A stretch of DNA of 64,000 nt. Origin: Tricharina praecox (taxonomy: Eukaryota). The notes under the pieces are model-generated. The model ran no database searches. It was given only the letters and a program-made list of their open reading frames with translations, and was not told the DNA's origin. Below are positions 1,424 through 40,917 of the stretch, in pieces; positions within the stretch are counted from its first letter, which is position 1, and every line of letters begins with the position of its first letter. The stretch is taken from contig NW_026250417.1 in NCBI RefSeq assembly GCF_024521635.1, forward strand, positions 1 to 64,000. Direction: 5' to 3'. Position numbers and translations under genes: made by a program.

Positions 1424-4400
1424 GCGGCCCCAGCACTCCGCAGACTGGACGGCCAGGTGTATATGTTTGCGGAACGAAGAGACCACGGCCTCAGGATATC
1501 GACAGCGAATCCAGAGATAAGCGAAGACGGACGGACCGACCTATTTCTACGAATCCAACCGCGCCGAGCGCCTCAGGGTGTGAGCCCCCAAAACCTGTCA
1601 GCGGACCACGACCAATCATAGAAATGATGCTCCTCTGGTCTGAGCACAAGCCACGACGGATCCGAGTACTCCTCGACACAGGATGTGCCATTCCGATCAT
1701 CAAACGAAGCCTTGCACAAGAACTTGGGTTGCCCCTCATTCAACGACCTAAGCCGGTGGAAATCAAGGACTTCCACGGAACCATAGTGGAAGGAGCCGGG
1801 GAATATTATACAATGCCGATGCTCCTCCAACACCGGAGGCACTACACCAACGAAACCTTCGAAGTGGCTCCCTTGGACGACTGCGATGCCTACCTCCCGT
1901 ATTGGTGGATGGCTAAGCATGAACCGACAGGGTTGTGGGAGAATGAAGCACAGAAAATTCGCTTCACCAGCACCCGATGCAAGGAACAATGCACCTTGCA
2001 ACAAGCAACCAGCTTTCCGATGGAACTTGACACGTCTGTCGTTCACAATTCGGAGGCTCGCATTATTGGATACGTCTCAGCTGGCCCGGAATCAGATCCA
2101 CCCATGAATCTGCTTCCGGAGAAGTTCAGACGATATGCCAACATCATGAGCAAGGAAGCAGCCGATAAGCTTCCCGACCACAAGTCCTACGAACACGCAA
2201 TCGATCTCAAGGAAGGAGAGACTCCTGCATGGGGTCCTATCTATGCGCTGTCAGAGAAAGAACTTGAGGCCCTCAGGGAGTGGCTCAAGGAGATGCTCCA
2301 GACAGGCAAGATTCGAAGATCCAAATCACCAGCCGGGGCGCCGATATTATTTGTACCAAAGGCGCACGGCAGGGGTCTCCGATTGTGTGTCGACTATCGC
2401 GGTATCAACAAGATTACCATAGCCAATCGCTACCCACTCCCGATCATGGCAGAGTTGCAAGACCGAGTCAGGGGTGCGAAAGTCTTCACCAAGATTGATC
2501 TGAAGAATGGCTATCACCTTATCCGCATCAAGGAAGGAGACGAGTGGAAGACGGCTTTCCGCTGTCGATACGGACTATTTGAGTTTTTGGTCATGCCGTT
2601 TGGGCTGACCAACGCTCCAGCGACGTTTCAGGACATGATTAACCACATATTTCGGGATATGTTGGACCTGGTACTGGTCGCGTACATCGATGACCTCCTC
2701 ATCTATGCTAAGACGCACGAGGAGCATGACAAGATAGTCATCGAGGTACTAAAGAGGTTGGAAGAAAATAAGTTGGCAATCTCACCAGAGAAGTGTGTCT
2801 GGTCGACAGGGAGAGTCAAGTTCGTAGGATACGTGATATCCCAAGATGGAATTGAGATGGCTAAGGACAAGGTGGAATCTGTGCTCTCGTGGGAGGCGCC
2901 GCGGTCCCTGAAGGAAGTACAAGCCTTTCTTGGGTTCGCCAATTTTTACAGGCGCTTCATCAAGGATTTCTCAAAGATCACGAGACCCTTGACCGAGAGC
3001 ACAAAAGAAAAAGGGAAGGATTGGAGAAGGACAGCGGAGATGGAACTGGCCTTCGAGGAGGTGAAGTCTAGGTTCACCACGGCACCGATTCTCGGGCACT
3101 TCAACCCAGAATTAGCTGTCGTGGTGGAATCCGACGCTTCGGACTTCGCTTTGGGCGCGGTCCTGTCTCAAAGGACAGAGGATGGGAAGTTACACCCAGT
3201 TGCGTTCCACTCAAGAAAGTTTACCCCAGCCGAAATCAACTTTGAGATTCACGATAAGGAACTACTCGTGATAGTAGACTCTTTCAAACGCTGGCGGCAA
3301 TACCTTGAGGGAGCAAAACACCAGATCCAGGTGTACAGCGACCACCAGAACCTTGAGTACTTCACAACCACGAAAGTACTCAATCGACGGCAGGCGAGAT
3401 GGGCACAAGAACTCGCTGGCATCGACTTCAAAATCTACTACCGGCCCGGCAGCCAGAACGGCAAGCCTGACGCATTATCCAGGCGCCCGGAGTACCGCCC
3501 TGAAAAAGGGGGGGGTGAAGATCAGCCGATTACGACGATCCTGCATAAATCACACTTTGCAGGCGACGATTCGAGAGTTTCATCAATCAGCACCGGAGGC
3601 GAAAGCACCGTGTTCCTGGTTTCGTCAACTCGGCTACAATTAATCCCCGTGCCAAAGTGGAATGACGAATTTCTGGGTTGGGTCAGGAAGGCAGGAAAGG
3701 AAGATGCTGGGTATCAGGAGGCTCTGAGCAGCATCAAGGACACGAACGAGGACGCGGCTCAGAAGGACACTGAGTCGGAGGGCCGAAAGGCCTGGGAACT
3801 GGCCGCCGAGAGTAGGGACTCCGGCAGGATGGGCCGAAAGGCCAGGATTTTGAGGATGGAAGAGGGGTGCCTGTATAGGAAAGAAAGGCTATGGGTACCA
3901 GACGATAAGGAACTCGTAAGACACATCCACGAGTCGGAACACAATACGAAAGTCGCGGGGCATATGGGCCAGGACAAAACTATCGAACTTATCCGACGCA
4001 ATTTCTGGTGGCCAAAGATGGACGAGCAGATTATAGACTTCGTCCGGAGTTGCGCGCAGTGTCAGAAGGACAAAGCAACAAGGCACCAGCCGTATGGACT
4101 ACTCAATCCCCTCGAGTTACCATACACCCCATGGCAATCAATAGCCATGGAGTTCATTACCGACCTACCGGAATCCAACGGATGCGACCAGCTATGGGTG
4201 GTCGTCGACCGCTTCACCAAGATGGCGCATTTCATCCCCCTATCTAAGGATGGAAAGATAGCCGAGGATCTCGCGAAGATTTTTGCCCGCGAGATATGGC
4301 GCTTTCACGGATTACCAGCAGACATAGTGTCGGACCGAGACTCACGGTTTACCTCTGGTACATGGAAAGAATTCATCCGGCTGCTAGGCATTAAGCCCCG

Positions 4401-5229
4401 GATGTCAACAGCGTTCCACCCACAGGCGGATGGACAAACCGAACGCCTCAACCAGACGATCGAAGCATACCTCCGCTCCTTCGTCAACTACGAGCACAAC
4501 GGTTGGGTGAATCTCCTACCGATGGCTGAGTTTGCCTACAACAACTCGGTTACATCGGCAACCGGAATGTCGCCCTTCTATGCGAATTTCGGATACCACC
4601 CGTCGGCGACAAACCCTGCTGCGGCTAATTCTCTCAACCCTGCCAGCAAGGTCTACGCTCACTGGATGCATACAGTCCACGAGGAAAACATCAAGACCCT
4701 CGAACGAACGCGCGAACGAATGCGCAAGTATGCAGATCAACATCGTCAGGAGGCACCGGCTTATCAAGTAGGAGACTTGGTAATGCTCAATGGGCGGAAC
4801 ATTCAAACCCGCCGACCCTCGCGGAAGTTGGACCACAAGAACCATGGTCCCTTGCAAATCGAGAAGATCGTATCGCCGCTCGCTGTCAAGCTCACTCTGC
4901 CAAGGAAGTGGAAGATTCATAATGTCTTTCACGTCTCGCTCGTTGAACCGTTCCGAGCCGGCACCCGAGCACCACCGGATCCCTCTCAAATCTTACGAGA
5001 GGCCGATGATGTGGAAGGCAACGAAGAATACGACGTCGATGAGGTTATGGGCAGCTCGAAGAAAGGTCGACGAGTGCTCTACCTCGTCAAATGGCTCAAC
5101 TACCGCGAACGACGGGACTGGACGAACGAGCCATTCGACAACTTCTCAGTAGGCGGTCGGGAAAAGCTACGCGAGTTTCATCGCAAAAATCCCGATGCGC
5201 CGAGGGACTACCGGCTCACAGATGAGTAA
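1420..5229 (+). CDS. pol: Retrotransposon Pol (protease, RT, RNase H, integrase, chromodomain), in the -1 frame relative to gag
   Basis: LLDTGC protease, YIDD RT, ESDASD RNase H, H..H..C..C zinc finger, SDRD/QTER integrase core, EYDVDEV...YLVKW chromodomain. Confidence 0.97.
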   Translation: MSGPSTPQTGRPGVYVCGTKRPRPQDIDSESRDKRRRTDRPISTNPTAPSASGCEPPKPVSGPRPIIEMMLLWSEHKPRRIRVLLDTGCAIPIIKRSLAQELGLPLIQRPKPVEIKDFHGTIVEGAGEYYTMPMLLQHRRHYTNETFEVAPLDDCDAYLPYWWMAKHEPTGLWENEAQKIRFTSTRCKEQCTLQQATSFPMELDTSVVHNSEARIIGYVSAGPESDPPMNLLPEKFRRYANIMSKEAADKLPDHKSYEHAIDLKEGETPAWGPIYALSEKELEALREWLKEMLQTGKIRRSKSPAGAPILFVPKAHGRGLRLCVDYRGINKITIANRYPLPIMAELQDRVRGAKVFTKIDLKNGYHLIRIKEGDEWKTAFRCRYGLFEFLVMPFGLTNAPATFQDMINHIFRDMLDLVLVAYIDDLLIYAKTHEEHDKIVIEVLKRLEENKLAISPEKCVWSTGRVKFVGYVISQDGIEMAKDKVESVLSWEAPRSLKEVQAFLGFANFYRRFIKDFSKITRPLTESTKEKGKDWRRTAEMELAFEEVKSRFTTAPILGHFNPELAVVVESDASDFALGAVLSQRTEDGKLHPVAFHSRKFTPAEINFEIHDKELLVIVDSFKRWRQYLEGAKHQIQVYSDHQNLEYFTTTKVLNRRQARWAQELAGIDFKIYYRPGSQNGKPDALSRRPEYRPEKGGGEDQPITTILHKSHFAGDDSRVSSISTGGESTVFLVSSTRLQLIPVPKWNDEFLGWVRKAGKEDAGYQEALSSIKDTNEDAAQKDTESEGRKAWELAAESRDSGRMGRKARILRMEEGCLYRKERLWVPDDKELVRHIHESEHNTKVAGHMGQDKTIELIRRNFWWPKMDEQIIDFVRSCAQCQKDKATRHQPYGLLNPLELPYTPWQSIAMEFITDLPESNGCDQLWVVVDRFTKMAHFIPLSKDGKIAEDLAKIFAREIWRFHGLPADIVSDRDSRFTSGTWKEFIRLLGIKPRMSTAFHPQADGQTERLNQTIEAYLRSFVNYEHNGWVNLLPMAEFAYNNSVTSATGMSPFYANFGYHPSATNPAAANSLNPASKVYAHWMHTVHEENIKTLERTRERMRKYADQHRQEAPAYQVGDLVMLNGRNIQTRRPSRKLDHKNHGPLQIEKIVSPLAVKLTLPRKWKIHNVFHVSLVEPFRAGTRAPPDPSQILREADDVEGNEEYDVDEVMGSSKKGRRVLYLVKWLNYRERRDWTNEPFDNFSVGGREKLREFHRKNPDAPRDYRLTDE

Positions 5230-5357
5230 GAGTTTTTGCCCATGTGGTTTTTCTCGAACTCGGGCAGGTAGTAGGATGAAGGGGTTGGAGGACTTCATCC
5301 ACAGTTATCAAGTTAGGATAAAGGCGAGGACTTGGGTGCTTCGGGCCGAAGCCTCGT

Positions 5358-5371
5358 GGGAGGGGAGATGG
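5358..5371 (+). promoter_or_regulatory. Polypurine tract of element A
   Basis: GGGAGGGGAGATGG immediately 5' of the LTR TG; the same tract precedes the LTR at 12613. Confidence 0.85.
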
Positions 5372-6060
5372 TGTGACACCCCGATAGGTATCGGGTGTCA
5401 CGACGGTCGCAAGAGATGTGATTAGATAGTTCGGGTGATTAGGATAGAGTTGCGAGCCGAAAGGATAGTTAGAAGCGATCAAGGACAAGATAGGAAGGAG
5501 GGAGCAAACGGATTCCAGAGTCTAGACAGTGATCGGAGATGCGGGAGATTGGGATAACAGTCCAGAGGACTTTGAGATCTCCGATCATAGGGCCCCGCAG
5601 TAGGAACTCCGATCCAGGAAAAAACTGTTATGACGAGAGAATCGAACATCGACCGATGGGGGCAGACAACTTCGAGCGAAGAACTCTGCCGGCGCGTGAG
5701 GGAGATAATTGCTCGGAAACTCCGATCTATCTTGGGCGCGTGGTGTTTACCACCTGCCTAGTCGAGAAGACTATCCGAAGAGAGCTGACGACGACTCAAG
5801 GCTAGGCCGCGGAACTCCGATGCAAAGGAAGCAACGGAGCTACGTTAGGCCGCACTCTAGAGGAATCACGTGCTGAGGATCGGGACGACTATAAGTCGAA
5901 CCGAGCGGGCAACCGAACAAACTACAATCATCGCACCGAACAAACCATCGAACAAACACCCTTAAGATTATTCCGTTGTGAATTGTCGAAATCCCTGACT
6001 TTTATTCTATCCTCGATATCACCATAGACTCCGACGGCACCAACCCGTCCCAGTCTCACA
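5372..6060 (+). repeat. 3' LTR of element A (689 bp, LTR type A)
   Basis: TGTGACA...TCTCACA ends; highly similar copies at 8540-9229, 11626-12032 and 12613-13868. Confidence 0.95.
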
Positions 6061-6769
6061 TCAGGGTCCGGCTTCCTATCAACGGAAGTTCGGGAAGAAT
6101 AGGTAGATAGATCGGGGAGCAGGAGGAAACCTTTAGATTAGTCGTAGCTACTCAGAGACGAGATAGGAAGGAAGGAAGCAAACGCGACCAGAGTCTAGGT
6201 GGGATCAGAGGCGCAGCGATACGCACGAAAAGTCCGATACAGTCATGCTTGACTTGAGGCAGGCGAATCGCGAAACAAGCGCAGAGAAAACTCTGATCGG
6301 AGACAAACCACTATGACGAGTGTTGCCCCTCTTCTCGCGTCTTGAGCAAATAAGAGCCGTGCCGAAAGGCGCAGCCGTTGCCCAGCGAAGAGATAGCTGA
6401 AACCGGACTATGCTCGGGTAAGGATTGGTGCGCCATACCTGCCTAGTTTGTATAAACTATCCTTCAGGTTTACGAAGACTCTGATGACATGGCGGAGAAA
6501 GTCTCCGCACGAAGTGCAGAGATTTCACGCCAGGGGTTCCATCCGGCAACAAGCTACGGCAACGGCTGGCACGTGACTCGACGAAATCAACCAACTATAT
6601 AGACTTCCGACGACACGGCGAAATATTCATCATTAGAATCAGCAACCAGAAAACCATCGACACTACCCCTTAAGATTATTGCGTTTGTGAAAGAAAGAAT
6701 ACTATCTATTTTCATTCTTATCCTATTCTATCAATCGACTCCGACGACCGAAATCGTTCCAGTCTCACA
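6061..6769 (+). mobile_element. Divergent LTR type B lacking its first bases (interrupted by element A), itself inserted in the protease region of element C
   Basis: Ends GACTCCGAC...CCAGTCTCACA and shares AAACCATCGA..CCCTTAAGATTATT and a TATA-like block with LTR A; no TG start; followed directly by HALIDCGAT-coding sequence. Confidence 0.8.
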
Positions 6770-9700
6770 CATGCGCTAATCGATTGTGGAGCAACCGGAG
6801 TCGCCTTTGTAGACAAACACTTCGCCCGCCATCACAACCTACCCCTCGTACCCCTTGAATCCCCGCGCGCCCTTGAGGTCATCGACGGCCTCCCCATCGA
6901 GTCTGGCGACATCACACACCTTGCCACCACCATCCTGTCAATCCAAGAGCACCACGAAGAACTCCCGATGTTCGTCACTAAACTGGGGCACTACCCAATC
7001 GTACTCGGAAATCCCTAGATGCACCTACACGGCGTGGCCATCCAATTCAGCTTCCGCACACTCACCTTTGGTTCCCAATATTGCACTGCACACTGCAATA
7101 CGGTATCCACAGTAGCCCACGGTATCACCACGGACCCATTGGAACTACCCTACGCTCTCGCACCAAACGTAGCTCTGGAGGAGCCAGCGGTAAGCGCCGG
7201 GGCCGGCGACATCGTGGCCCGATGCGTTACGTCTCCCCAGATCAAAGAATACCAGCAGGATGCTAACCAGAGAAAACTCACAGTCAGAATCTCAGCCCTC
7301 CGAATAAAGCCTTTTCAGCAGATGGCAGAAAAGGAGAACCTCACCATCTTCGCCACGACCCTGACGGAGATCAATAAAGTTCTATCTGAAGAGAAACAGA
7401 GCTCAACCGCCCACATTCCCCCCGAATACCACGAATTTCTCCACCTCTTCTCTGAAAGGTTGGCGCAATACCTACCACCCCATCGGCAATACGACCACAA
7501 GATCCCACTAAAGGAAGGATTTGTGCCCCCTTACGGACCCCTCTATTCGCTCTCGAAAACCGAAGCTGGTCGCACTCAAGGAATGGCTTGACGATAATCT
7601 GAGCAAGGGATTTATCCGTGTGTCCTCATCACCAGCGGCATCACCGATCCTGTTTGTCAAAAAATCGGACGGCTCCTTGCGACTGTGTGTGGACTATCGA
7701 GGCCTGAACGAAGGAACCATCAACAACCGCTACCCACTTCCCCTGCTCCAGGAAACCTTGATGCGACTGTCCGGTGCAAAGTATTTTACAACACTGGATA
7801 TCCGCGGTGCTTACCACCTGGTACAAATGGCAGAAGGGGAGGAATGGAAAACGGCCTTCCGGACCCGCTACGGACTTTTCGAATCATCGGTAATGCCTTT
7901 CGGGCTAACCAATGCGCCAGCCGACTTCCAAGCCCTGATCAACGACGTTTCACGACCGTTCCTGGACGGCTTCTGTACCGCCTTCCTAGATGACGTCTTT
8001 ATCTACAGCGCGTCACTGGAAGAACACCGAAAACAGGTTACCAAAGTGCTACGCGCCCTTTCATCGGCCGGACTGCACTTGAAACCGGAGAAATGCCACT
8101 TCCACCAAACAGAGGTCAAATACTTGGGCCTGATCATAACCACAGAGAGTATTAAGATGGATCCTGCCAACGTCTCTAGCGTACTCGAATGGGAAAAACC
8201 GACGACGGTAACGGATGTGCAGTGTTTCTTGGGCTTCGCGAACTTCTACCGACACTTTATCCAGGACTACTCTAAGGTGGTATCTCCCCTGACGGCAATG
8301 ACAAAAAAGGAAAATGGGAAGTACGTCCCCTTCGAATGGGGTATTGATCAACAGCAAGCCTTCGACACTCTCAAGACTGCCTTCTCTACCGCCCCGATCC
8401 TCCAACATTTCGACTACGACCGAGAAACAGTGGTGGAAACTGATGACTCGGATTACGTGTCGGCCGGTATTCTCTCCCAGTACGACGACGATGGAATCTT
8501 GCATCCAGTTGCCTTCTATTCAAAGAAACACTCCCCGGCTGTGACACCCCGATAGGTATCGGAGGACACGACGGTGGCAAGCGGTGTGATTAGATAGTCC
8601 GGGTGATTAGAATAGAGTTGCGAGCCGGATGGATAGTTAGAAGCGATCGAGGACAAGATAGGAAGGAGGGAGCAAACGGATTCCAGAGTCTAGACAGTGA
8701 TCGGAGATGCGGGAGATCGGGATAACAGTCCAGAGGACTTTGAGATCTCTGTTCATTGAACCCCGCAGTAGGAACTCCGATCCAGGAAAAAACTGTTACG
8801 ACGAGAGAATCGAACTTCGACCGATGGGGGCAGACAACTTCGAGCGAAGAACTCTGCCGGCGCATGAGGGAGATAATTGCTCGGAAACTCCGATCTATCT
8901 TGGGCGCGTGGTGTTTACCACCTGCCTAGTTGAGCAGACTATCCGAAGAGAGCTGACGACGACTCAAGGCTAGGCCGCGGAACTCCGATGCAAAGGAAGC
9001 AACGGAGCTACGTTAGGCTGCACTCTAGAGGAATCACGTGCTGAGGATCGGAACGACTATAACTCGAACCGAGCGGGCAACCGAACCAAACCACAATCAT
9101 CGCACCCAACAAACCATCGAAGAAACACCCTTAAGATTAATCCGTTGTGAATTATCGAAATCCCTGACTTTTATTCCACACCCAATATTACCATAGACTC
9201 CGACAACACAAACTCGTTCCAGTCTCACACCGGCGGAATGCAGTTACGAAATCTATGACAAAGAATTGTTGGCAATTGTTCAGGCCTTTGAAGAATGGAG
9301 ACTACACCTTGAAGGAGCCGCGCACCCGGTCCAAGTCCTGAGCGACCACAAGAACCTGGAACACTTCATGTCAACCAGGTTGCTCAACCGCCGGCAAGCA
9401 CAATGGTCGGAATTCCTGTCCCGTTTCGACTTCAAAATCGTGTATCGACCTGGTAAAGCAGGAGGGAAACCGGATGCATTGACAAGGAGGTCAGGAGACT
9501 TCCCTAAGGAGGGGGATGAAAGACTGCTGGCGAACCAACAAGCAGTCCTCAAGCCCCAAAACCTTCCTGAAGAATTGAGATTGTCAGCTACTAACCCGTT
9601 TGAAGTACCCCGTCCCGCACTCTCTACCATGATAACCGAAGCATACCAGGTAGACCCAGCGCCGAACAAGATCCTCCAACCACTCAGAAACGGAACACAC

Positions 9701-11218
9701 CACTCGAAGGACATCTCGCTCGCCGACTGCAGCGAAGTCAACGGACAATTACATTACCGCGATTGCTTCTATGTTCCTGAACACGGCCCACTCAGACTTC
9801 GCCTGATCCAGGACCACCACGGCCCACCGGCTATGGGCCATCCCGGAAGAGCAAAAACCTTGGAACTGCTGGCCCGGAACTACTACTGGCCCCAGATGCG
9901 GAAGGACGTTGACCGATCCGTGAAGAACTGCCACACTTGCAGACGAACCAAGGCAACAAGACACGCCCCCTGCGGTGTGCTCCGCCCACTGCCAGTACCC
10001 GAGAAACCCTGGCAACATATCTCTGTCAACTTCGTAACCGGACTCCCTCCCTCAAAAGGATTCGATGCCATTTGCGTATTTGTGGACCGCCTCACCAAGC
10101 AACGACACCTGCTCCCCTGCAACACAACCATCACCTCTGAGGGACTCGCCGAACTATTCTGCGATCGGATCTTCAGATACCACGGACTACCCGGCACCAT
10201 CGTATCGGACCGGGGCCCCCAGGTTGCATCACGATTTTGCAAACATCTATGCTCTTGCCACAAGATCGACGCACGGCTCTCCACGGCGTTTTACCCGCAG
10301 ACAGACGGTCCAACAGAGAGAATGAATGCGGTAATGGAACAACACCTCCGAGCATACGTCAGCTACCTGCAGGATGACTGGGTCGACTACCTATTCTTGG
10401 CAGAGTTTGCTGGCAACAACCAGGCATCCGACACCACCACCCTCTCCCCGTTTTTTGCTAACCTAGGCTACCACCCCCGTTGCGACTTCGAGCTTGACAT
10501 CCGAACCGACACGAACGAACAGCAACAGGCACAGACAATGGCAGAGCGACTCCAGCAGATTCATGACGTTGCCCGCAGTGACATGCGATACGCCCAAGCG
10601 CGGCAGCAGGACAACACGGACCAGCACGGAAACCCCGCAGCGGCCTTCCAGCCTGGGGATATGGTATGGGTGGACGGCCGAAACTGGCGGACGGAGCGAC
10701 CAAGCCGAAAACTGGAAAACAAACACCAGAGACCCTATCGGATTACCCGAGCCATCGGAACTCACGCATACGAACTGGACATCCCGAACACCATCCAAAA
10801 GCATCGCACCTTCCCAGTGTCCCTCCTCCACGCATCCGTCAACGACCCCGTCCCCGGCCAGATCCTGCCGCCACCGTTACCGGTAATTGTGAACGACCAA
10901 GAAGAATGGGGGGTGGAGGAAGTGCTGGACAGCAGAACGCTGAGGGGAAGACTCCAGTACCCAGTCAAGTGGAGGGGTTTCACGGCATCGACGTGGGAAC
11001 CTGAGGAGGACCTTGTGGACGTACAGGCAGTGGACGACTTCCACCAACGGTACCCAATGAAGCCTGGACCAGTTCAACTTGCTCTCGTGGGAACTCGAGC
11101 CTTAGGAGGCGCTACTGTCACGGCTGGCGACGGCACGTTCGAGGAAGAGTCGGAACAGGGGCCGGAAGGCAGCGCGGGGGCAGTGCAAGGGGCTGCGCGG
11201 GCGGCAATGCAGGAATGA
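6770..11218 (+). pseudogene. pol: Degenerate pol of element C
   Basis: Frameshifts near 6865 and 7565, TAG at 7016-7018, RNase H split by a solo LTR. Removing 8540-9234 restores [21 protein letters not shown]. Confidence 0.92.
8540..9229 (+). mobile_element. Solo LTR type A with 5-bp TSD CCGGC
   Basis: CCGGC at 8535-8539 and 9230-9234 flank a complete TGTGA...TCACA LTR. Confidence 0.96.
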
Positions 11219-28700: not shown

Positions 28701-29151
28701 CCCCTCGATCGCGCTCCTCAAGCTCAGTCAGGCCCCATCTGTGTTCTGTGCAGACAGCGATCAAACGCTTGATCGACGACCCTCACAATCGCCAGCCAGC
28801 CGGCCAGGACTCTATTTATTTATTTTCCGGTTTCCAAATTTGATTCAGCCTCGGCTTAAATCCTCTAAACGCCGGATTGGAATTTGGAAGCAGAAGGAAG
28901 AGGTCGGACTTTGCCGGCAACAAAGATACACCGAATTCCGCGCCCGTCCCCATTGCCAGCCAGTACATAACATTACCACTCGGGAAAAAAAACTCTTTCT
29001 TCTCTCACGTGGTGGTGGTGCTTTCTTCTATCCCGTTCACCTTTCTTGACTACTACATACCCGTTATTGATTGCATTGCTCTTCGGGGAAAGAAAGAAAA
29101 TATCTTGTTCCTTCCATTGTTTTGCCCTTCACTCCATCTCCGTAACCGCAT

Positions 29152-32100
29152 ATGGCAGCAGTGGAACCGCTCTCAGCGGAGGCTGGCGCCACCCTGACGA
29201 CGACCGCGGCGACGACGACACACACATCCGCCCCGACACGTGTAGCACCACCACCATCACCGGTCGACTACGACGAGAAGCCATCGGCGACATCACCGAC
29301 GCGGCGCGGCTCCTCTGGTTCATCGTTCAGCGACAAACCCGATCCCGAGAAGGGCGGCGGCAGCGGCGGCGCGCGAAATGGGAAGAATGGCCTGCCGTGG
29401 AGGAGGTACGGCTCGTACAATCCGCTGAGATGGAGCGATCCCCCACCGGTGCCGCCAGAGAGGGCTATCAGTCAGGAGGCGGACGCGAGTCTGTGGAGTC
29501 GCGCGACGTTCATGTGGATGGGCGATCTGATGAAGGTTCGCATAATCTCTGCTTAGCTATATGTTGAAGTGCCCATAGTGCTGTGCACATATACCCTCCC
29601 CCCCTCTGTCTTACCCACCCCGCCGGTCATGCCCCTCTCCCCATTCCGTACCATCTCCGACCCAATCCTCCATTCCCCGCGGTTTCACCGAACGATGAGG
29701 TCGGTACCGAGGGCGCGGACGGAGGATTCATTGGATTCGTTTTATCCGAGCGGGATGTAGAGTGCTGACGCCCCGCCAAATCAACAGACAGGATACCTGC
29801 GACCCCTGGAGCCCACCGACATCCCGCTCGTCGCGCCGCGCCGATCGGCAACAATCATCACCGAGAAGCTGCAAAGCGCGTTTAAGCGGCGCCAAGAGAA
29901 GGGCGACAAGTACCCGCTGCTGTGGGCGCTCAACGAGATCTTCTTCTGGGAGTTCTGGTTCTCGGGCGTGTGCCGCCTCATCGCCGATATCCTGCTCGTC
30001 ATCAACCCGTTCATCCTGAAATACCTGATCCGCTTCGCCGTCGACGCGTATAATGCGTCCAAACATGGCACCCCCGGACCGAGTGTGGGCAAGGGTGTCG
30101 GCCTCGCTGTCGGAATCGCGTGCATACAGCTGGTCGTCTGCGTCGGTGTTTCGCAGTTCATCTACAACTCGATGATGGTCGGAGGGCAGGCACGAAGCGG
30201 CATCATCGGCATGATTTTCGACAAGTCGTTGAAGATCTCGGGCAGGGCTAAGGCGGGTGGAGATGCGGCGACCGCGTTCACCATGGCTACGGCAAGGCAG
30301 CAAGGGAAGGAGGACAAGAACGGGAAGAAGACGAAGGAGAAGAAGGAAAAGGAGGAGGAAGTGGGCTGGTCCAACGGACGTGTGGTGAACCTGATGGGAA
30401 CGGACTCGTATCGTGTCGACCAGGCGGCTGGATGGTTCCATATCATCTGGACGGCACCGGTGCAGATTATCCTGTCGCTGATTCTGCTCCTCATCAACTT
30501 GGGATACTCCGCTCTTGCCGGTTTTGGGCTGTTGGTCATTGGAATACCGATTCTTTCGTGGGTGGTGAAGATCCTCGCGCGCAAGCGCAAGACCATGAAC
30601 AAGATCACCGACAAGCGAGTCGCCCTGACACAGGAGATCCTGACCGGCGTGCGGTTCGTCAAGTACTTTGGATGGGAGGAGAGTTTCCTCTCGCGCTTGC
30701 AGGATCTGCGGAACGAAGAGATCAGTGCAGTGCAGTTCTTGCTCGGTGTCCGAAGTGGTGTCAACGCCGTCGGAATGTCGCTGCCGATTTTTGCGTCCAT
30801 GCTCGCCTTTGTTACCTACTCGTTGACCGACAATAGTCTGGATCCCGCCTCCGTCTTCTCGTCGCTAGCACTGTTCAACGCCCTCCGAATGCCACTCAAT
30901 ATGCTTCCCCTCGTCATCTCGCAAACTATCGATGCGTGGGTATCCATGTCGCGGCTTCAGGATTATCTTCTCGCCGAGGAGACTACTGACCGAGTCGTAC
31001 ATGACGAAGAATTGGAAGCGGCCATCCAAGTAGACAACGCCAGTTTCACTTGGGAACAGACAATGCCGGAGTCGGAGAAAAAGAAGTCCAAATCGTCGCG
31101 GAAACAGAGGAAGCTGGATGCTGCTACTGCCGCCACTGCGGCTGCCGAGAAGGAGCAAAATCCGGACGTACCTGGTAACACCACCCCAGTCTCACCGTTC
31201 CATCTTGACGCCATCAACCTCTCCGTGTCTCGCCACGAACTCCTGGCCGTCGTTGGATCCGTCGGATGCGGCAAGAGCTCGCTCCTAGCAGCTCTGGCCG
31301 GTGATATGCGCAAGACGGAAGGAAGCATCAAAATGTCGGCAAAGCTCGCATACTGTCCACAGTACGCGTGGATCCAGAACGCCACCGTCCGTGAGAACAT
31401 CGTCTTCGGCAAGGAATTCGACCCGGAATGGTATGCGGCGGTTGTGGAGGCTTGTGCGCTCGAAAGGGACTTAGACATGTTGCCGGACGGAGACAGGACC
31501 GAGATCGGAGAGCGGGGTATTACCGTGTCTGGTGGACAGAAGCAGAGGCTCAACATCGCCCGTGCCATCTATTTCAATGCCGATATCGTGCTGATGGATG
31601 ACCCGCTCTCTGCCGTCGATGCGCACGTCGGAAAGCACCTGTTTGATAAGGCCATTTGTGGGCTGCTGAAGGATAAATGCAGGATCTTAGCTACACATCA
31701 GCTTCACGTACTCGACAAGGTGGACAGAGTGGTGTGGATGGAGGAGGGCAGGATCCAAGCTACCGGCACCTACACTGAGCTTATGCAGAACAATCTGGGC
31801 TTCGCCGAGATGATGAAGGAGATCGCGACGGAGAAGAAGGAAGAGGAGAAGCTCAACAAAACTGCCGATGGTGATGAGATCTTGGAGGAAGCGGTTGATG
31901 TGGAGGAGGAGGAAGCGGCCGTATTGACGAGGAAGAAGACTCCTGCCGCAGCAGCAGCAGCATTAATGCAGACCGAGGAACGAGCGGTCGCCAGTGTTTC
32001 ATGGAAGGTCTATGAGGCTTATATCAAAGCTTCCGGCACGATACTCATCGCTCCCGCCATTGTCATTTTGCTGGTCGTTATGCAGGCGTCTAATATCTGG

Positions 32101-33832
32101 ACGACGCTTTGGCTGGGATACTGGACGAGCGATCACTACAACCTCTCGAACGGTGCCTATGTTGGTTTGCCCATTCCCATGGTTTCCATTCACGTATATT
32201 AATCGGTGCCTACACAGATCGGAATCTTTGCCGCTCTCGGTACTATCCAGTCCATCCTGATGTTCGTTTTCGCATTCGGTCTCACAATCGCGGGTACCAA
32301 ATCCAGCCGTGTTCTCTTGCAGAAGGCCATGAAGTCGACTCTGCGCGCCCCGATGTATGTCTCCCGTAATTCACTTCACTCACACCTGCTGACCCTTCCG
32401 CAGGAGCTTTTTTGACACGACACCTATTGGCCGCATCGTCAACCGCTTCTCTAAGGACGTGGATGTGATGGACAACATGCTGACGGACGCCATCCGCATG
32501 TACTTTCTCACTTTGGCCATCATCTCATCGGTCTTCGTCCTGATCATCGTCTACTTCTACTACTTTGCCATCGCGCTTTTCCCCCTCTCGCTCATATTCC
32601 TCTTTGCCGCCTCTTACTACCGTTCCTCAGCACGCGAAGTCAAGCGTCATGAAGCAGTCTTACGTTCCCATGTATTCGCCAAATTCGGCGAATCCCTCAC
32701 TGGAGTAGCATCGATCCGCGCGTACGGTCTCGAGGACCGGTTCAAGAACGTGCTGCACAAGGCGGTGGATGAGATGAATGGCGCGTACTTCATTACCTTC
32801 GCCAACCAGCGCTGGCTCTCGACCCGTCTCGACGTGATCGGAATTCTACTCGTATTCACCACCGCGATTCTAGTTGTCACCTCGCGCTTCAGCGTCCATC
32901 CATCTATCGCCGGTGTCGTGCTCAGCTACATCCTCATGATCGTCATGATGCTGCAGTGGATGATCCGGCAGTTGGCGGAGGTAGAGAACGCGATGAATGC
33001 GACTGAGCGCATTCATTTCTATGGCACATCACTGCCCGAGGAGGCGCCGCTACGCACAAACGCACAAGTGCCACTTTCGTGGCCGGAAAAGGGCACGGTG
33101 GAATTCAAGAGAGTGGGCATGCGTTACCGACCCGGACTCCCGCTGGTCCTGAAGGACCTGAATCTCACGATCCCGGGCGGCAGCCGAGTAGGAGTCGTTG
33201 GCCGCACCGGTGCCGGAAAGAGCTCCATCACCTCCGCGCTCTTCCGCCTAGTCGAACTGGCGGAAGGTAGCATCACCATCGACGGCGTCGACATCTCCAC
33301 CCTCGGGCTGGCCCTGCTCCGCAGCAAACTCGCCATCATCCCCCAAGATCCCACACTCTTCCGCGGTACGATCCGTAGCAATCTCGATCCCTTCCATACC
33401 TACAAGGATGAGGAGCTGTACGCCGCCTTGCGATCGAGCTCCCTCGATTCTACGGTCACCTTGGAATCGATGGTCGACGAGGAAGGGTATAACTTTTCGC
33501 TCGGACAGAGACAGCAGATTGCGCTTGCGCGCGCGTTGGTCAGGAATAGTCGTGTGGTCGTCGCGGACGAGGCGACGAGTAGTGTTGATGTTGAGACGGA
33601 TCGGATTATTCAGAAGAGTATGAAGGAGGGGTTCGAGGGAAGGACGCTGGTGTGTGTCGCCCACAGGTTACGGACAGTGGTGGGATACGACATGATTGTC
33701 GTCATGGAGGCGGGTCAGGTTGTTGAGGTGGGCCCGCCAGGAGAGCTGTGGAGACGCGGAGGCGTCTGGAGGGGAATGTGTGATCGTAGTGGCATCTCTG
33801 AGGCGGATTTTGAGTTTGCGAAGGAGGAGTAG
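29152..33832 (+). CDS. ABCC/MRP-family ABC exporter, YOR1-like, ~1440 aa; exons 29152-29535, 29788-32160, 32218-32354, 32404-33832
   Basis: TMD-NBD-TMD-NBD; NBD1 GSVGCGKS, VSGGQ, LMDD; NBD2 GRTGAGKS, FSLGQ, VADE; spliced APMSFFDTTPIGRIVNRFSKD motif. Confidence 0.95.
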
Positions 33833-34764: not shown

Positions 34765-35953
34765 TCAGCTGCCATTGTGCTGGGGAGGGTTGGGGGATGG
34801 GTTTGTGATGAGTTAAAAGTTTGTGTTTGGGTCCGATGGACATTTGTTTGTGACTTTTGTGCCGCATGTTCGCTTTGTTGTTGATGTTGTTGTGTTGGGT
34901 CGGTGGAGCACCGGCCGATCAAATGGGTTCATACCGTGTCGATAGGATAGTGCTGCATTGTGCGAAATGAAATGCTTGTTTGAGTTGTCGTTGAGGGAGC
35001 GAGTGGGCATAAGTAAGTGGTTGGTTGGTGTCGACATGTCTCCACCGCCGCCGTGATCTCGCGCGGGTGTTGGCTGCGATCACTCGTCGTATGTAATCTG
35101 ATCATCTCATTGATTCTACCCAATATCCCCACTGTCCTTTACTGACCGCGTCTTCTGCATCAACTCGCGAATGTGCAGCATTCAATGCGCCAGCTACTGA
35201 TGATCCTCGACCCGGTTCTATCAGGCACAGTCAGTGACGGGATACTATGTACTACTACCACCTACCTAATATCACCCCTCCATCTAGGTTGCTGGGGCCT
35301 AGCAACGAGCCTACGATAACAGGGGTGCGTCGCGACGACCTCGAAAAGGATAAAATTGAAATCATTGAGGATGCAGTTGATGCGATAAATTTGAAAAAAG
35401 GAAAGAAGAAAAAACAGCTCCCGAGGCCCTAAGCCTCCTCCTTGCCTTCCACACCCTCCTGCTCCTTTCCGCCTTCCATGTGGTTTTCGTGTCCCTCCTC
35501 GTCAACACCCTCCTCCTCCTGGCCCTCCTCTCTCTTCTCGACCTCCTCCTTAATTTCCATCAGATCCGTCTCCTAGTCGCCTCCCTTGCGGTCCGTATTG
35601 CCCTCCATCTCCTCGCCTGCATCGTCGGTAGCGCCGGTGCCGGCTTCGTCTCGGTATAGTAGAGTGGCCCATCAACAGTAATGCTAGGTATTTCAAGTGC
35701 TCCCAGCAGTGAGTCCTACTTGTATCACCCGCTGAATGCCCTCGGACCGGCAAGGTATCCTCACGGATGCCCACGCATAATTGATCGAGGTTTCTCTCCT
35801 CATAGCGGTACATAGGTACATAGAAGACAAATTGGGGCCATGAATATCCCTTTTGGCGTCGTTCCAACTTCCTCACCGCCACCCTAACCCTTTCTCTCCG
35901 CCTTCCCTCACCCTTTCTCTCGGTCTCCCCTCACCCTTCCTCGCCGGCTTCCC

Positions 35954-38900
35954 TCACCCTTCCTCTCCGCTTCCCCTCACCCTTCTTCTCCGCTTCCCCT
36001 CACTCTTCACCTCCACCTCCCCTGACCCTCCCCGACCGCCTTCCCTTCTATCCGATCGATGTGGGCCTCTCAACCGCCCTCCACGCAGATCCATCATCTT
36101 TGCGACCAATGCGTACATCCATCTTAGAAGTCTTAGTATACCTCGGCATACCCACTGGAACCACTCTAGAACCTTGTGATAATATCCCTGCTCTCGAAAA
36201 GCTAAGGCCATGTTGTTGACCGTGGCGAGGGTGGCGAGAGTGTGGGGGTGGTCTTTTCCGAGGGCCTTCTCATAGCCGTCAAGTGCACGCTGGAACCACT
36301 CCAACGCCTTGTGATATTCCCCCTGTTGATGAAAAGTGTTGGCCATGTTGTTGACGGTGTTGAGTGTGTCGGGGTGGTCTTTTCCGAGGGCCTTCTCATA
36401 GCCGTCTAGTGCCCGCTGGTACAACTCCAGCGATTTTTGATAATCCCCCTGTTGATGAAAAGTGTTGGCCATGTTGTGGACGGTGGCGAGGGTGTCGGGG
36501 TGGTCTTTTCCGAGGGCCTTCTCACGGCCGTCAAGTGCACGCTGGAACCACTCCAACGCCTTGTGATAATCTCCTTGCCCCAGAAAGGTGTTGGCCATGG
36601 TGTGGACGGTGTGGAGAGTGTCGGGGTGGTCTTTTCCGAGGGCCTTCTCACGGCCGTCAAGTGCACGCTGGAGCCACTCCAACGCCTTGTGATAATCCCC
36701 CTGTTGATGAAAAGTGTTGGCCATGTTGTGGACGGTGGCGAGGGTGTAGTGGTGATCTTTTCCGAGGGCCTTCTCACGGCCGTCAAGTGCACGCTGGAAC
36801 CACTCCAACGCCTTGTGATAATCTCCCTGATTGTCATAAGTGATGGCAATGCTGTGGACGGTGGCGAGAGTGTCGGGGTGGTCTTTTCCGAGGGCCTTCT
36901 CACAGCCATCAAGCGCCTGCTGAAACAACGTCAAAGCACCTGCGGCATCCCTGTTGTTCGTTACTAGAAAACTCCCTAAACAATACGGTAGCCCCATGCT
37001 TGAATGAAACTTCTTGTGGGAACCACTGTTCGAGGTGTGCAGCAGTACGGTAATTGCATGTACTTCTAGCAGCGAACACTGGTTGTGATTTCCGCGCATG
37101 TCCTGCGGGAAACTATCGTACAACAAGCCACAAAGCGTCTCTAGAAGCTCATCTCTCCGTTGTGGGATTTCCGCTATCTCTCTCCGGATACATAATCCCA
37201 CAAGACGATGCAAGCGGAATTTTGAAGATTTGAGACGGTCAATTAGGGAGAAGGCTAGGAGCGGTGCAAAGGCCGCACTGAACTGTACGTCACTTTTGTC
37301 GGATAGGACGCCTCTCAGTAATCCTTTTGGTATGTCGTCCGGGCTCAGGAAGCTCATGATTTCCAGTAGTCGCACAGAATCAGGGCTTTGGTTCCGGATC
37401 TTTCCAACGGTGAGTTTCCAGGTAGTCATCACCGCACGCGAACAATGCCTCCGACTGTCTTCATCCTGCACTGGCAAAGCCTTGCTTAAAAGCTCCTCTT
37501 GGTTGTTCTCACATTCTTTGAACATCTTCATGTAGGTTGAGATTTCCACCCCCGTCTCTCGTATATACGCTGCCGCTTGCGTGATCGCCAAAGGTAGGTG
37601 GTCCAACTGATTCAGGAGCTCGATGGTATCTTTCGAAACGGCCGCTTCGTCGGTAGGCGAAAGATTTGTGAACAATCTCAATGCTTCGGCATCACTCATT
37701 GCCCTAATGTGCATTGCCGCGGCACGCGGCACAAAGTTTCCAACGATGGTGCCGTCGCGTGTCGTGTATAGAATTGCACCCCGCTTTACCGGGAGGTATT
37801 TCGCTAGACGCAAGTCGGGTTCGTCGTGGTTGGCCAAATGGTCTAAATTGTCGAAATTGTCGACGATTAGAATCCAGTCACCACTGGTAGCGCTGTCCAA
37901 CCATTTCTTGACCTGCTTCAAACGGTCTTCCTCCAAGTCGATGCCATCAATAATAATATTGGCTTCCCGGACAACCTCCAAATAGCTGCTCTTGAAGTTT
38001 TGGTACGAGTCCCCGAGCACCCAGAAAATGTGACCGTCTGGCTTCGCTTTCTGCCTTCGGTGACAAAACTCGATCGCAATAGTCGTTTTCCTGGACCATG
38101 TTAAACACACTCAACAAAATTACGCGGAACGTGGAGCCTTACCCATTTCCTCCGAGTCCATACAATGCGGCCCGCTGTTGGCTTTCGCTATCGGGAGGTA
38201 GCAGTGACTCGAGCCGGTTTAATGTCTCCTCTCTCCCGACGAAATCTGGATTCTTCCTCGAGGGCACCATGAATATAGGCGACATACCCGAGTTGAAGCC
38301 TAAAGGCCTGATTAGCATGGAACTATATGTGCCTAAATCAACCAAGTGGCCTTTCGGAATGACATCGTGCGCAGACCCCGATACAAAGAGACTCGCGAAA
38401 GAAAGATTGCCGCGGCGGCAAAGGTAGGCGAGGCCTAAGCCACCACCTGGACCTCCTTAAGGCCCGGATGACAGACTTGGATTGAAACAGGAACAAGCCA
38501 TTTAAAAATATACATTCAACAGTGGAAAAGCGGGGTACAGGGGGGCATGGTAGTGAAAGTGATATAACCTACCTAAATTATCCCGACCTTCTTTGATCGG
38601 AGCAAGGCCAGATTGTGGGGCATAGTTGTGAATCTGAACCGTATCTCCTACGAAGAAACAGCGTGCGTCAGCTAAAGTCTTGTAGTTACCATCGCAGCAC
38701 GGAATAGATTGGCGAACCTATATTTACGTGGCCTGTGAAATTTGAGTCCTGGAATTCGTTGTGCCGTGATTTCGTATACCCGCGAGAGCTGTCCGTGGTG
38801 CTATTTCCGATTGAAATCGTCGTGCTGGAGCTGCTGACGATGTGACTGATGCTTCGAATAGTTGCACCTTGTGAGGTGCCTGTCGCAATGCTGAGGTTAT

Positions 38901-39084
38901 CTCGCCCCTGTACCGCCTGCGCAGATCGTTGTCAGCTACATTCGGATCTTCACGGCATCCGGAAGGTAATGCGAACCGTCCCACTAGCAATTATTCCACC
39001 TCCCTGGAGGTTCGGATTCGGTCGCGCATCCCATAGCTGATCTGTCCGCTCGTCTTCTGTCCAGGGGTGTCGCCGAACAGACAT
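35954..39084 (-). CDS. Fungal NLR (short N-terminus, NB-ARC, TPR array), ~891 aa; predicted exons 39084-38977, 38916-38718, 38647-38573, 38299-38143, 38090-35954
   Basis: NPDFVGRE, spliced P-loop GLGGNGKT, WILIVDNFD, YTTRD, HLPLAI, LHRLV, six 42-aa TPRs. The NB-ARC-TPR part is secure; the three 5' exons are inferred from in-phase splice signals. Confidence 0.85.
36152..36925 (-). repeat. 126-bp tandem repeat array encoding TPRs (about 6 units)
   Basis: (G/A)TCTTTTCCGAGGGCCTTCTC recurs at 36251, 36377, 36503, 36629, 36755 and 36881. Confidence 0.97.
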
Positions 39085-40917
39085 CTTGAAATGAGCTGAG
39101 GATCAATGGAACAAGTCGAACGTAGACGGAAAGCTGCGGAGTGTGTGGTTGGGAGTGAAAAGTAAAGATCTATGGTAGCTAGCAGTTGTTCTATTCTCCT
39201 ACTCTAGCAGCTGGCACGACTGTCTGCAGAGTCTACGGGCAGTGCCCACCCATCTGGACAACTGGAAAATCAAGTCGGCCAATCGAGTGTGTACAAGAAG
39301 CTACAATACATGGACCATCACGGATTACAGCCGCAAATAAGCACTAGTCTATATGAGGAGCGCACTAAGCCAGATACTGTCAACCGAGTGAGTGGTTATG
39401 ACTACACTGTACAGTAGAGCAGAGGGCAGGCGGTGTGATGTACGAGGTGCACTCGTGAGCGAAAACCTGTTTCAGCGAACGAGGAGCCAAGTCCTCTTTC
39501 TCGCCAAGTCATGATGCTGATCAATAGCCCAATGCTCTCGCCCAACCTTATTCGTGCTCCCGTCTTGGCCCTTTCACCAACACTATCTATGTATTCTTAG
39601 CCGTCTTCCAAGCCTCCATCACGTGCCCATATCAGCCTCCATCGGCACATAGGGCGTACAATACGATGAAGATAAAGTTCGATACCCGATACCTTTCCCA
39701 TTCCCACTCCTCAGCTCCCCGCCTTGCCAACCCCCCCCCCCCCCCCCCCCCCCCCCCCTCGGAGCCGTCCAGCACCCACTATTCTGCGCCCACTATGGTG
39801 GTGAGGCAGCACTTACCCTTACACCCATCTTTCACCCTGTACGTACCTATGTATGCTCATGCGCACAGGCTCGAGCCGCAGCTAACTACGAGTACAGCGA
39901 TCGCGAGTTATGCCTACCAACCGATCCTAAGTCACTCAATTCTTCACCGCCTAAGGCTTCGGGGTCAAATAGATGTGGCTTGAGTGCTGGGTTTTCAGGC
40001 GCGAATGAGCTGCTGATGGCGCATCTGATCCCGTTCCTCCCGCACCCATCTCCCATTGCCGCCATCCATCCATATACCACCCCACTAACACCACGAGTCA
40101 CGTACCCCAGAAGCTTCAATACAGTCACCGACTTATAAGATCTCTGCGACCGGAACTTGCCCCGATGTTCAAGTTACTGTACCGTACTCTATTGTGGCGT
40201 CAGTGAGAAGGTCGACACGTGCGGAAGCTTGGTACATTGGCGGGGACTGAGATTCCAAGCTCATGAGATAGACTTGGAAAGAGGCACACCACTGCGTGCG
40301 GTGGCGGTGCCATGTCAGCTCGGCACAGGTCAACGGTTCTTCATGTGCAGCCGTGCTTCCCGCAAGCCTCGGTACACCGCTTTTCGTACAACAACAGTGT
40401 GGTATGTATCTCAACGACATATCCCCCCACCGCCGCATACAGATAATCCTTGATTGCCCAGAGCCCACACGCCCCAAGCGCTAGCCGGAGCTGGAACCAA
40501 CCAGGAAAGATTCCGAATAATCCGAGGATTCCAAGTTGGCTGCACGATATCTCACTCGGTGATTCTAAATGCTGAGCCGCAATCAGCTGCCAGAAACCGG
40601 AAAGGGAACAAGCGATAGTTCTGTTGGCTCGAGTGTGGACGACTACATATCAGATGTTGACACGAGCGAATTTGCGTCGAAATTTCTTCGTGACCATCAC
40701 ACTGGCGGAAATGGGAACGACTACGTTCCGACAAGCAGGGCCCCGCTAGTTGGATCTTCAAGTAGTACATCAGACCCGGAGAAGTCGGGCATAACTAGAG
40801 GTCCAATACTATTATGACCGGATACGGTCGAATACAGAATAATGAATATGAAGAAGAAAACCCCTTCTCTACAATACAGAATCGACCGTCAAAGTCATCG
40901 GTTCCCATACAAATCTT

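Follow-up and report, generated by a model that had tools for sequence, protein, structure and literature searches.

A hidden receptor motif with a counterpart in a micro-protein

We analysed 64,000 nucleotides (nt) of the Pyronemataceae fungus Tricharina praecox (contig NW_026250417.1, positions 1 to 64,000; hereafter the window), which encode on the minus strand a NOD-like receptor (NLR; NOD, nucleotide-binding domain) of 891 amino acids (aa) with NB-ARC and TPR domains. Its N-terminus, spliced from exons that are absent from the public gene model, carries a 25-residue motif that is reused as a module ahead of mutually unrelated NODs. The motif is N-terminal in receptors and C-terminal in a domain-less micro-protein of 77 aa, whose gene adjoins an NLR gene at one locus and which is conserved in related genera. 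On balance, we favour the view that this is a lineage-specific homotypic motif of amyloid type, with the micro-protein as amplifier or decoy and the wiring set out below.

Gene structure and splicing

The window NLR is an expressed gene, the in-phase join of five exons (Table 1). The initial annotation had placed three hidden 5′ exons in phase before the NB-ARC exon, and this was borne out: all four introns (60, 70, 273 and 52 nt, with CT..AC ends on the plus strand) are skipped in contigs of the two runs containing the gene, X1 and X2, from two studies. These runs were labelled RNA by guess alone; we read their contigs as spliced transcripts because four GT-AG introns have been removed exactly. 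The donors (GTTCGC, GTTCGC and GTAGGT for introns 1 to 3), the branch-like sites (GCTGAC, GCTGAC and GCTAAT) and the start codon context (TTCAAGATG at 39084) lie where they had been predicted. The X2 contig extends to 39251, with no further ATG between 39084 and 39251 and an in-frame stop just upstream of 39084. Exons 1 to 3 comprise 127 codons plus 1 nt, matching the predicted S/T/G/I-rich N-terminus of ~128 aa (its first 128 residues are led by S17, G14, T13 and I11), and the candidate amyloid peptide spanning intron 2 is correctly positioned at 38766-38622.

The public protein P0002 (770 aa, T. praecox by source and identical over the searched region) has its first ATG inside intron 3, and the public model hence lacks exons 1 to 3. 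Proteins named T. praecox probably come from this same genome and were not counted as independent. At the other end of the gene, a short duplication closes the TPR array and an R/G-rich tail follows (minus strand, 35954-36150, within the 35800-36274 span of an X1 contig); this tail looks like read-through past an interrupted last TPR repeat.

Definition of the motif

By a position table over 35 of 40 motif instances, the conserved positions are R(−2), Y0, S/A3, H5, N6, E7, F8, S/G11, F13, G15, V/Q17 and F/I19, with Y and H invariant and R and E near-invariant. Since these begin at R(−2) and Y0, the conserved core of the window copy starts at R81/Y83 (38784/38778), upstream of the peptide first singled out. 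That peptide had been framed on the N...IG pattern of HET-s, which we rejected as what is conserved, since the micro-proteins stop short of its G; nor does any instance (0/40) fit the HRAM spacing (N/Q/H at 3, hydrophobic at 5, 8, 10, 16 and 18, G at 19, in our own rendering of the positions in PMC4518210). The shorter spacing itself was correctly noted, with 14 residues from N to G in the window copy against 16 in HRAM numbering (PMC4518210).

When scored with a profile made from 11 foreign C-terminal tails, the window motif reaches 32 bits, compared to 12.2 for the best of 5000 shuffles of the N-terminus. By a profile of the motif, the window contains a single copy, the next-best score being 7.6 bits. 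None of 15 instances matches any Pfam family, in keeping with the earlier reading of the gene as an NLR that carries a short N-terminal motif in place of an effector domain. As at intron 2, GT follows the same G in seven other loci, and in several paralogues the donor behind the motif exon is likewise GTTCGC or GTTCGT.

The motif in the genome

Protein and pattern searches followed by a profile search located 16 distinct motif loci in the genome plus one near-duplicate (C38/C63; C numbers denote contigs). There may be more than 16, even though the final pattern brought in nothing further. True loci score 26-54 bits, most having been in the training set, versus at most 11.1 bits on 1.5 million reversed residues; two pattern matches, on C64 (15 bits) and C33 (9 bits), were rejected. 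At 13 of the 16 loci the motif directly precedes a NOD exon, in 11 as the N-terminus and in two between a SesB-like lipase and a NACHT-WD region. Several carriers are broken (C50, C10, C41, C61 and C85).

The NODs that follow the motif are unrelated beyond the P-loop (E ≥ 0.17 for the window NB-ARC against three NACHTs; 23-28% likeness among four NACHTs), and the nearest NB-ARC relatives of the window gene (P0007 and P0020; loci on C26, C45 and C2) lack the motif and bear a SesB-like lipase. In its behaviour the motif is therefore a mobile module, found in the place of an effector. Separately, one contig start (G000:C39:2,500-62,000) holds a cluster of at least five NLR genes, four with the motif, and three pairs of loci (L055/L056, L075/L076 and L086/L087) are near-identical on different contigs, one pair with small indels, either as assembly duplicates or as recent copies.

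The motif in other organisms

Conservation in homologous NLRs, whose absence the initial annotation had listed among the grounds for refuting its motif, was found: a Sphaerosporella protein (P0010), with an NB-ARC 49% identical to that of the window gene over 364 aa, begins with the motif. Of 51 matches to the profile among 1.84 billion representatives, 45 have the motif, and among the 30 whose names were looked up, eight motif matches were directly named Trichophaea, Wilcoxina or Tricharina. In total, the motif occurs in four genera, all Pyronemataceae: Tricharina, Trichophaea, Wilcoxina and Sphaerosporella. We discounted as chance the six matches without it, namely P0113, P0117 and four adhesin-like repeat proteins of bacteria; in the adhesin-like proteins (P0098-P0100 and P0115) each repeat matches part of the motif profile, which we also take as chance.

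A pattern scan of metagenomes yielded 52 loci, of which 17 scored below 20 bits and were dropped before counting. In 20 a NOD signature lies within 2.5 kb downstream, in six none was seen (four of these near contig ends), and nine are tails ending in G-[GA]-Q-[SN]-W-S-stop, which collapse to four distinct loci, three with an NLR no more than 8 kb away. Two further sequences are of unusual build. In one metagenome protein (P0134, 143 aa) ankyrin (ANK) repeats directly follow the motif with no NOD, and it may be partial or a NOD-less sensor; in a chimeric gene (L111:673-1296, minus strand) the reading frame of a TPR array continues through two copies of the motif and on into NACHT-type exons.

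A domain-less micro-protein ends in the motif

The candidate partner is encoded by a 77-aa open reading frame (ORF; G000:C47:91343-91573), N/T/S-rich and without a domain, with the motif at its C-terminus; it lies on another contig than the window gene, which has no neighbouring partner gene, and so agrees with the earlier expectation of an unlinked partner. Its gene follows, at a distance of 980 bp, that of a NACHT-ANK NLR with a very short N-terminus consisting of little beyond the motif. The product is on record on a 1434-nt contig. A single-sequence search with the protein found only itself, and the C47 ORF was the sole match in a search of the genome with the tail pattern. We considered whether the ORF is the last exon of a longer gene and rejected this, as in-frame stops lie upstream with and without removal of a 63-nt leader intron, though a more distant exon is possible.

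Micro-proteins of Trichophaea, Wilcoxina, the P0120 cluster and three distinct metagenome loci (Table 1) end at the motif G or 1-5 residues past it. They consist of 38-52% N+T+S where measured and have no domain above the Pfam cut-off. The 3′ half of exon 2 of the window gene is homologous to the micro-protein coding exon (alignments A6 and A8; BLASTP with P0001, E 7e-6), and the genome's own micro-protein is identical to the window motif at 11 of 25 positions (44%). Among five tails, 40 synonymous codon differences stand against 49 non-synonymous ones, with 59 third-position changes versus 18 and 40 (the pairs are non-independent).

Structure prediction was uninformative: AlphaFold2 monomers from two micro-protein alignments had a predicted local distance difference test (pLDDT) of 52.8 and 51.4, no secondary structure and no usable fold, and a complex predicted for exon 2 and two micro-proteins scored 0.00, which carries no weight either way. 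The only ESM Atlas matches for P0001 and P0108 were under 0.9, and alignment A7 had no match among PDB sequences. One micro-protein type (L101, L106 and L116, the last at 7788-8063 on the plus strand) has a short hydrophobic/basic start before the N/T/S repeats, and no NLR signature within 8 kb.

Search for conventional effectors

The initial annotation had seen no matching effector gene in the window, and we likewise rejected one: Pfam searches of 30 ORFs gave only retrotransposon, ABC, O-methyltransferase, PH, SAM and CobW domains. It had further expected the partner to be a separate cell-death protein of HeLo, HELL or SesB type with the motif at its C-terminus. Instead, the C-terminal match is the domain-less micro-protein, and no intact motif-ending effector was found in the genome at 6 HeLo, 9 HeLo-like, 7 patatin or 30 SesB-like loci (1.5 kb flank each); PNP_UDP, SesA, Goodbye, HET and gasdermin-like genes were covered by the motif patterns, which are independent of domain, and not by domain searches. 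The only effector-linked motif carriers found in the genome are the lipase-bearing NLRs with an internal motif.

Two metagenome fusions are leads and no proof of an executioner. In L141 a patatin exon (PF01734, E 9.5e-9) splices in frame, via a 45-nt intron, onto a gene-ending motif exon, in a copy with an apparent frameshift and a probable allele (L113) that is interrupted. P0108, a single partial protein, has two hydrophobic helices followed by a motif tail of the micro-protein type; its relative in this genome lacks the motif. As a side observation, a fungal domain with two predicted membrane helices, a candidate effector, is fused to the motif tail and also found beside NLRs (P0108; L141:2127-2612; L089 at G000:C17:614064-614351), and a HeLo-like plus ankyrin gene family with no NOD seen between the domains occurs on G000 contigs C41, C19, C34, C23 and C10 (L074-L080).

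Other features of the window

Further afield in the window are two pol regions of chromodomain retrotransposons of Ty3/gypsy type (1408-11218, plus strand), the second in pieces, and an ABC transporter gene (~28971-33832, plus strand). The latter had been credited with the same GTTCGC donor at its intron 1; GTTCGC does follow its first exon, at 29536, as a candidate donor.

Table 1. Features of the window NLR gene, and motif loci and micro-proteins elsewhere
Feature	Position or identifier	Strand	Evidence or remark
5′ untranslated leader, at least 167 nt	39085..39251	−	X2 contig piece 38976-39251; ATG-free
Exon 1, 108 nt, codons 1-36	38977..39084	−	Translation; spliced contigs; absent from public model
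Intron 1, 60 nt, phase 0	38917..38976	−	Removed in X1 and X2
Exon 2, 199 nt, S/T-rich module exon	38718..38916	−	3′ half homologous to micro-protein coding exon
Motif core R-x-Y-x2-S-x-H-N-E-F-x4-F-x-G-x-V-x-I-G, residues 81-103, last G split by intron 2	38718..38784	−	Position table, 35/40 instances
Intron 2, 70 nt, phase 1, inside last Gly of motif	38648..38717	−	Removed in X1 and X2
Exon 3, 75 nt, short strand-like stretch behind motif, then linker	38573..38647	−	Translation; spliced contigs
Intron 3, 273 nt	38300..38572	−	Removed in X1 and X2
Exon 4, 157 nt, NB-ARC start, P-loop ~38159	38143..38299	−	Translation; spliced contigs
Intron 4, 52 nt, inside P-loop	38091..38142	−	Removed in X1 and X2
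Exon 5, to stop	35954-38090	−	Translation; spliced contigs
Remaining NB-ARC and helical domains (bounds approximate)	37130..38090	−	PF00931 precomputed for P0002; DUF7779; P0010 49% identical over 364 aa
Array of near-identical 42-aa TPR repeats (bounds approximate)	36150..36950	−	TPR_12 E 1.8e-98, TPR_10 E 5.7e-72
R/G-rich non-TPR tail to stop	35954..36150	−	Translation
SesB-like–motif–NACHT-WD NLR	C39:36.6k		Intact
SesB-like–motif–NACHT-WD NLR	C61:90.3k		Frameshifted
Motif locus at contig end	C88		
Motif locus without NOD downstream	C85		
Motif ending 77-aa ORF	C47:91343-91573		
Micro-protein, Trichophaea	P0087		91 aa
Micro-protein, Wilcoxina	P0132		
Micro-protein cluster	P0120		98-112 aa
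Micro-proteins, three distinct metagenome loci			76-92 aa from likely start

Proposed mechanism and alternatives

In the mechanism that we favour, the window gene would be a sensor NLR of the SesB-like-lipase/NB-ARC/TPR clade in which motif exons have replaced the lipase. Ligand binding by the TPR array would oligomerise the NB-ARC, as proposed after NWD2/HET-S (PMC5485727, PMC12881547), the N-terminal motifs would then stack, and the stack would serve as a seed templating the same motif in trans. Candidate receivers in the genome, the only ones found, are the 77-aa micro-protein and the two SesB-like-motif-NACHT-WD NLRs (on C39 and C61). The likeliest wiring would have many sensors and one shared micro-protein which, lacking a killing domain, would amplify or damp the seed, with output through lipase domains gathered on the fibril. 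More tentatively, domain-less amyloid micro-proteins of 76-112 aa may form a shared hub for many Pyronemataceae NLR sensors, either as a prion-like adaptor relaying the seed to lipase-bearing NLRs or as a decoy that sets a threshold.

In favour of this mechanism stand the splicing in two runs, the reuse of the motif ahead of unrelated NODs, the lipase-bearing relatives without it, the adjacency at C47, the micro-proteins of other genera with their N/T/S content and codon differences, and an identity to the window motif within the range of cross-seeding pairs. Several observations weigh against it. The amyloid (beta-arch) nature of the motif, which we consider most likely, comes by analogy; compared with known motifs of the receptor side, the present one has more charge, and 12 of 35 instances have Pro at +16. 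Periodicity of 6 and/or 8 residues, a further point in favour, appears in five of seven micro-proteins (z 2.3-4.2, uncorrected for the 13 lags tried per protein), but the micro-protein of this very genome has none, its lags being 9 and 14. No pair-wise co-evolution is seen, in that the micro-protein is identical to its adjoining NLR at 11 of 25 positions and to all 15 loci at 8-14 of 25. At one of the four distinct tail loci from metagenomes, no signature of an NLR lies within 8 kb, and many metagenome contigs may stem from one campaign. The similarity of the foreign tails is partly built in, because they were found with a motif-derived pattern, though their C-terminal position is not. To these is added that no intact motif-ending effector was found at the HeLo, HeLo-like, patatin and SesB-like loci of the genome.

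One alternative is a conventional two-component amyloid system: an executioner with a C-terminal motif (a patatin, a two-helix membrane domain or something diverged) would have been lost, left unassembled or missed, and the micro-protein would be its left-over tail. The in-frame patatin fusion of L141 and the helices of P0108 ahead of the same tail type speak for this, as does an intron just ahead of the micro-protein exon in the own gene and in L121, with a splice site like that of L141. We nonetheless judge it unlikely, given the apparent frameshift of L141 and its interrupted probable allele, the single partial sequence of P0108 and its motif-less relative in this genome, and the chimera L111, which shows that the motif exon also lands in odd places; moreover, fusions are fewer than domain-less forms, whose start, frame and stop are preserved from genus to genus. 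Rather more doubtful is a non-amyloid role, in which the motif would be a short interaction, localisation or turnover signal, or a scaffold stabilising oligomers in cis, and the micro-protein a competing peptide. A binding motif would fit the invariance of Y and H and the near-invariance of R and E, the motif also lies inside effector-bearing NLRs, and scaffold roles have been proposed for internal motifs (PMC9815663); set against this, the motif is N-terminal in the receptor and C-terminal in the partner, with the two genes adjacent at C47, which is the genomic signature published for amyloid signalling, and the register resembles a group of amyloid-signalling-motif-like sequences.

That the motif is merely a neutral, much-copied 5′ exon cassette recombined among NLR genes is very improbable. 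Broken carriers on five contigs, the existence of chimeras such as L111 and the free divergence of the flanking parts of exons 1 and 2 are all expected of such a cassette, but the protein-level consensus is kept across four genera and the tails show a synonymous excess. Run X2 also matches the window at all 475 nt compared in the leader, exon 1 and exon 2 (38718-39251), with 14 differences in 1369 nt of exons 4 and 5 (36878-38298), a weak contrast (chance ~0.015).

Comparison with known systems

A survey of fungal NLRs reports hundreds of amyloid-like N-terminal motifs without a matching effector, with the neighbours considered limited to 200-400 aa (PMC9815663). A partner architecture based on micro-proteins would be invisible to a survey that keeps only such neighbours, and the partners of orphan NLR motifs may be micro-proteins below this cut-off, or other NLRs. 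If true, a micro-protein hub would add a third type of architecture to the 'all-in-one' and 'receptor plus effector' types. The present system also makes it worth scanning basidiomycete genomes anew for short ORFs with orphan motifs at their ends. Annotation can hide such N-termini, as the loss of all three exons from the public model of this gene illustrates; the het-eN motif was likewise missed at first through an unnoticed 5′ intron (PMC3321046). Among the rows listed from S1 Table of the survey, Tricharina, Trichophaea and Sphaerosporella are absent and Pyronema is mentioned 79 times, with no motif call in the 11 entries viewed (PMC9815663). In the literature outside subscription papers, we found no description of this motif, of a fungal partner consisting of a motif only, or of amyloid motifs from any Pyronemataceae.

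The motif resembles the basidiomycete NLR05/22 group. Like the meta-family NLR05/08/22/29/44, it occurs in many NLRs per genome, with NB-ARC and NACHT alike and few or no linked effectors, and it shares with NLR05/22 a register of aromatic or aliphatic residues at 0, 8 and 13 and small residues at 3, 10 and 11 (PMC9815663). A 14-position NLR05/22 pattern, read off Fig I of the supplement to PMC9815663 and written post hoc, fits 10 of the 40 instances, with no more than 1 match in shuffles, and misses the window copy by one position. The meta-family has no experimental validation (PMC9815663). The window motif differs from it in being ascomycete, with invariant Y and H, near-invariant R and E and a G-D/N about two residues later, and in having a C-terminal counterpart in a domain-less protein. 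Judged by its sequence, it appears to be an unclassified Pyronemataceae signalling motif, which may yet overlap with NLR19 (Tuber), NLR34 or NLR22.

With NWD2/HET-S and HRAM1-5 it has in common an effector-less NLR with a short N-terminal motif and, at C47, the same motif ending the protein of an adjacent gene (PMC4518210, PMC5485727, PMC7889193). In contrast to HRAM1-5, the partner here lacks a HeLo domain and has one motif plus short N/T/S repeats instead of two 21-aa repeats, and none of the six HeLo and nine HeLo-like loci examined in the genome ends in a motif pair. The core of PP/RHIM/BASS3 (NxGxQxGxN or G-hydrophobic-Q-hydrophobic-G), the GDQN signature and PUASM (FxGxGxQxxGxGxF) were each absent from all 40 instances. 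For sigma, defined by Pfam NACHT_sigma and by G/Q/N-rich motifs A and B in repeated copies (PMC3321046), the instances tested gave no Pfam match, and inspection of the alignments showed neither A nor B.

Sigma, PP and PUASM do share with the present motif that one motif is common to NB-ARC and NACHT receptors with TPR, WD or ANK repeats and that SesB-like lipases are an associated effector class (PMC3321046, PMC9815663). Unlike in the sigma system (het-eN/sesA/sesB), SesB-like domains here carry the motif internally and not at a free C-terminus. The lipase-bearing and motif-bearing NB-ARC relatives reproduce the 'all-in-one versus two-gene' alternation described in PMC3321046. The 44% identity between the own micro-protein and the window motif compares with 43-56% in cross-seeding BASS pairs (bioRxiv 2020.01.06.895854), and the 77-aa protein and the 25-residue receptor motif provide a testable pair suited to the standard Podospora prion assay. 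What would be new here is the receiver, a domain-less partner of a family-specific motif.

Mammalian CARD-only and PYD-only proteins and Drosophila Pirk are domain-only immune regulators. Viral RHIM decoys are domain-only regulators as well (PMC13506858). Like all of these, and with no sequence relation claimed, the micro-protein would be reduced to the interaction module of a signalosome.

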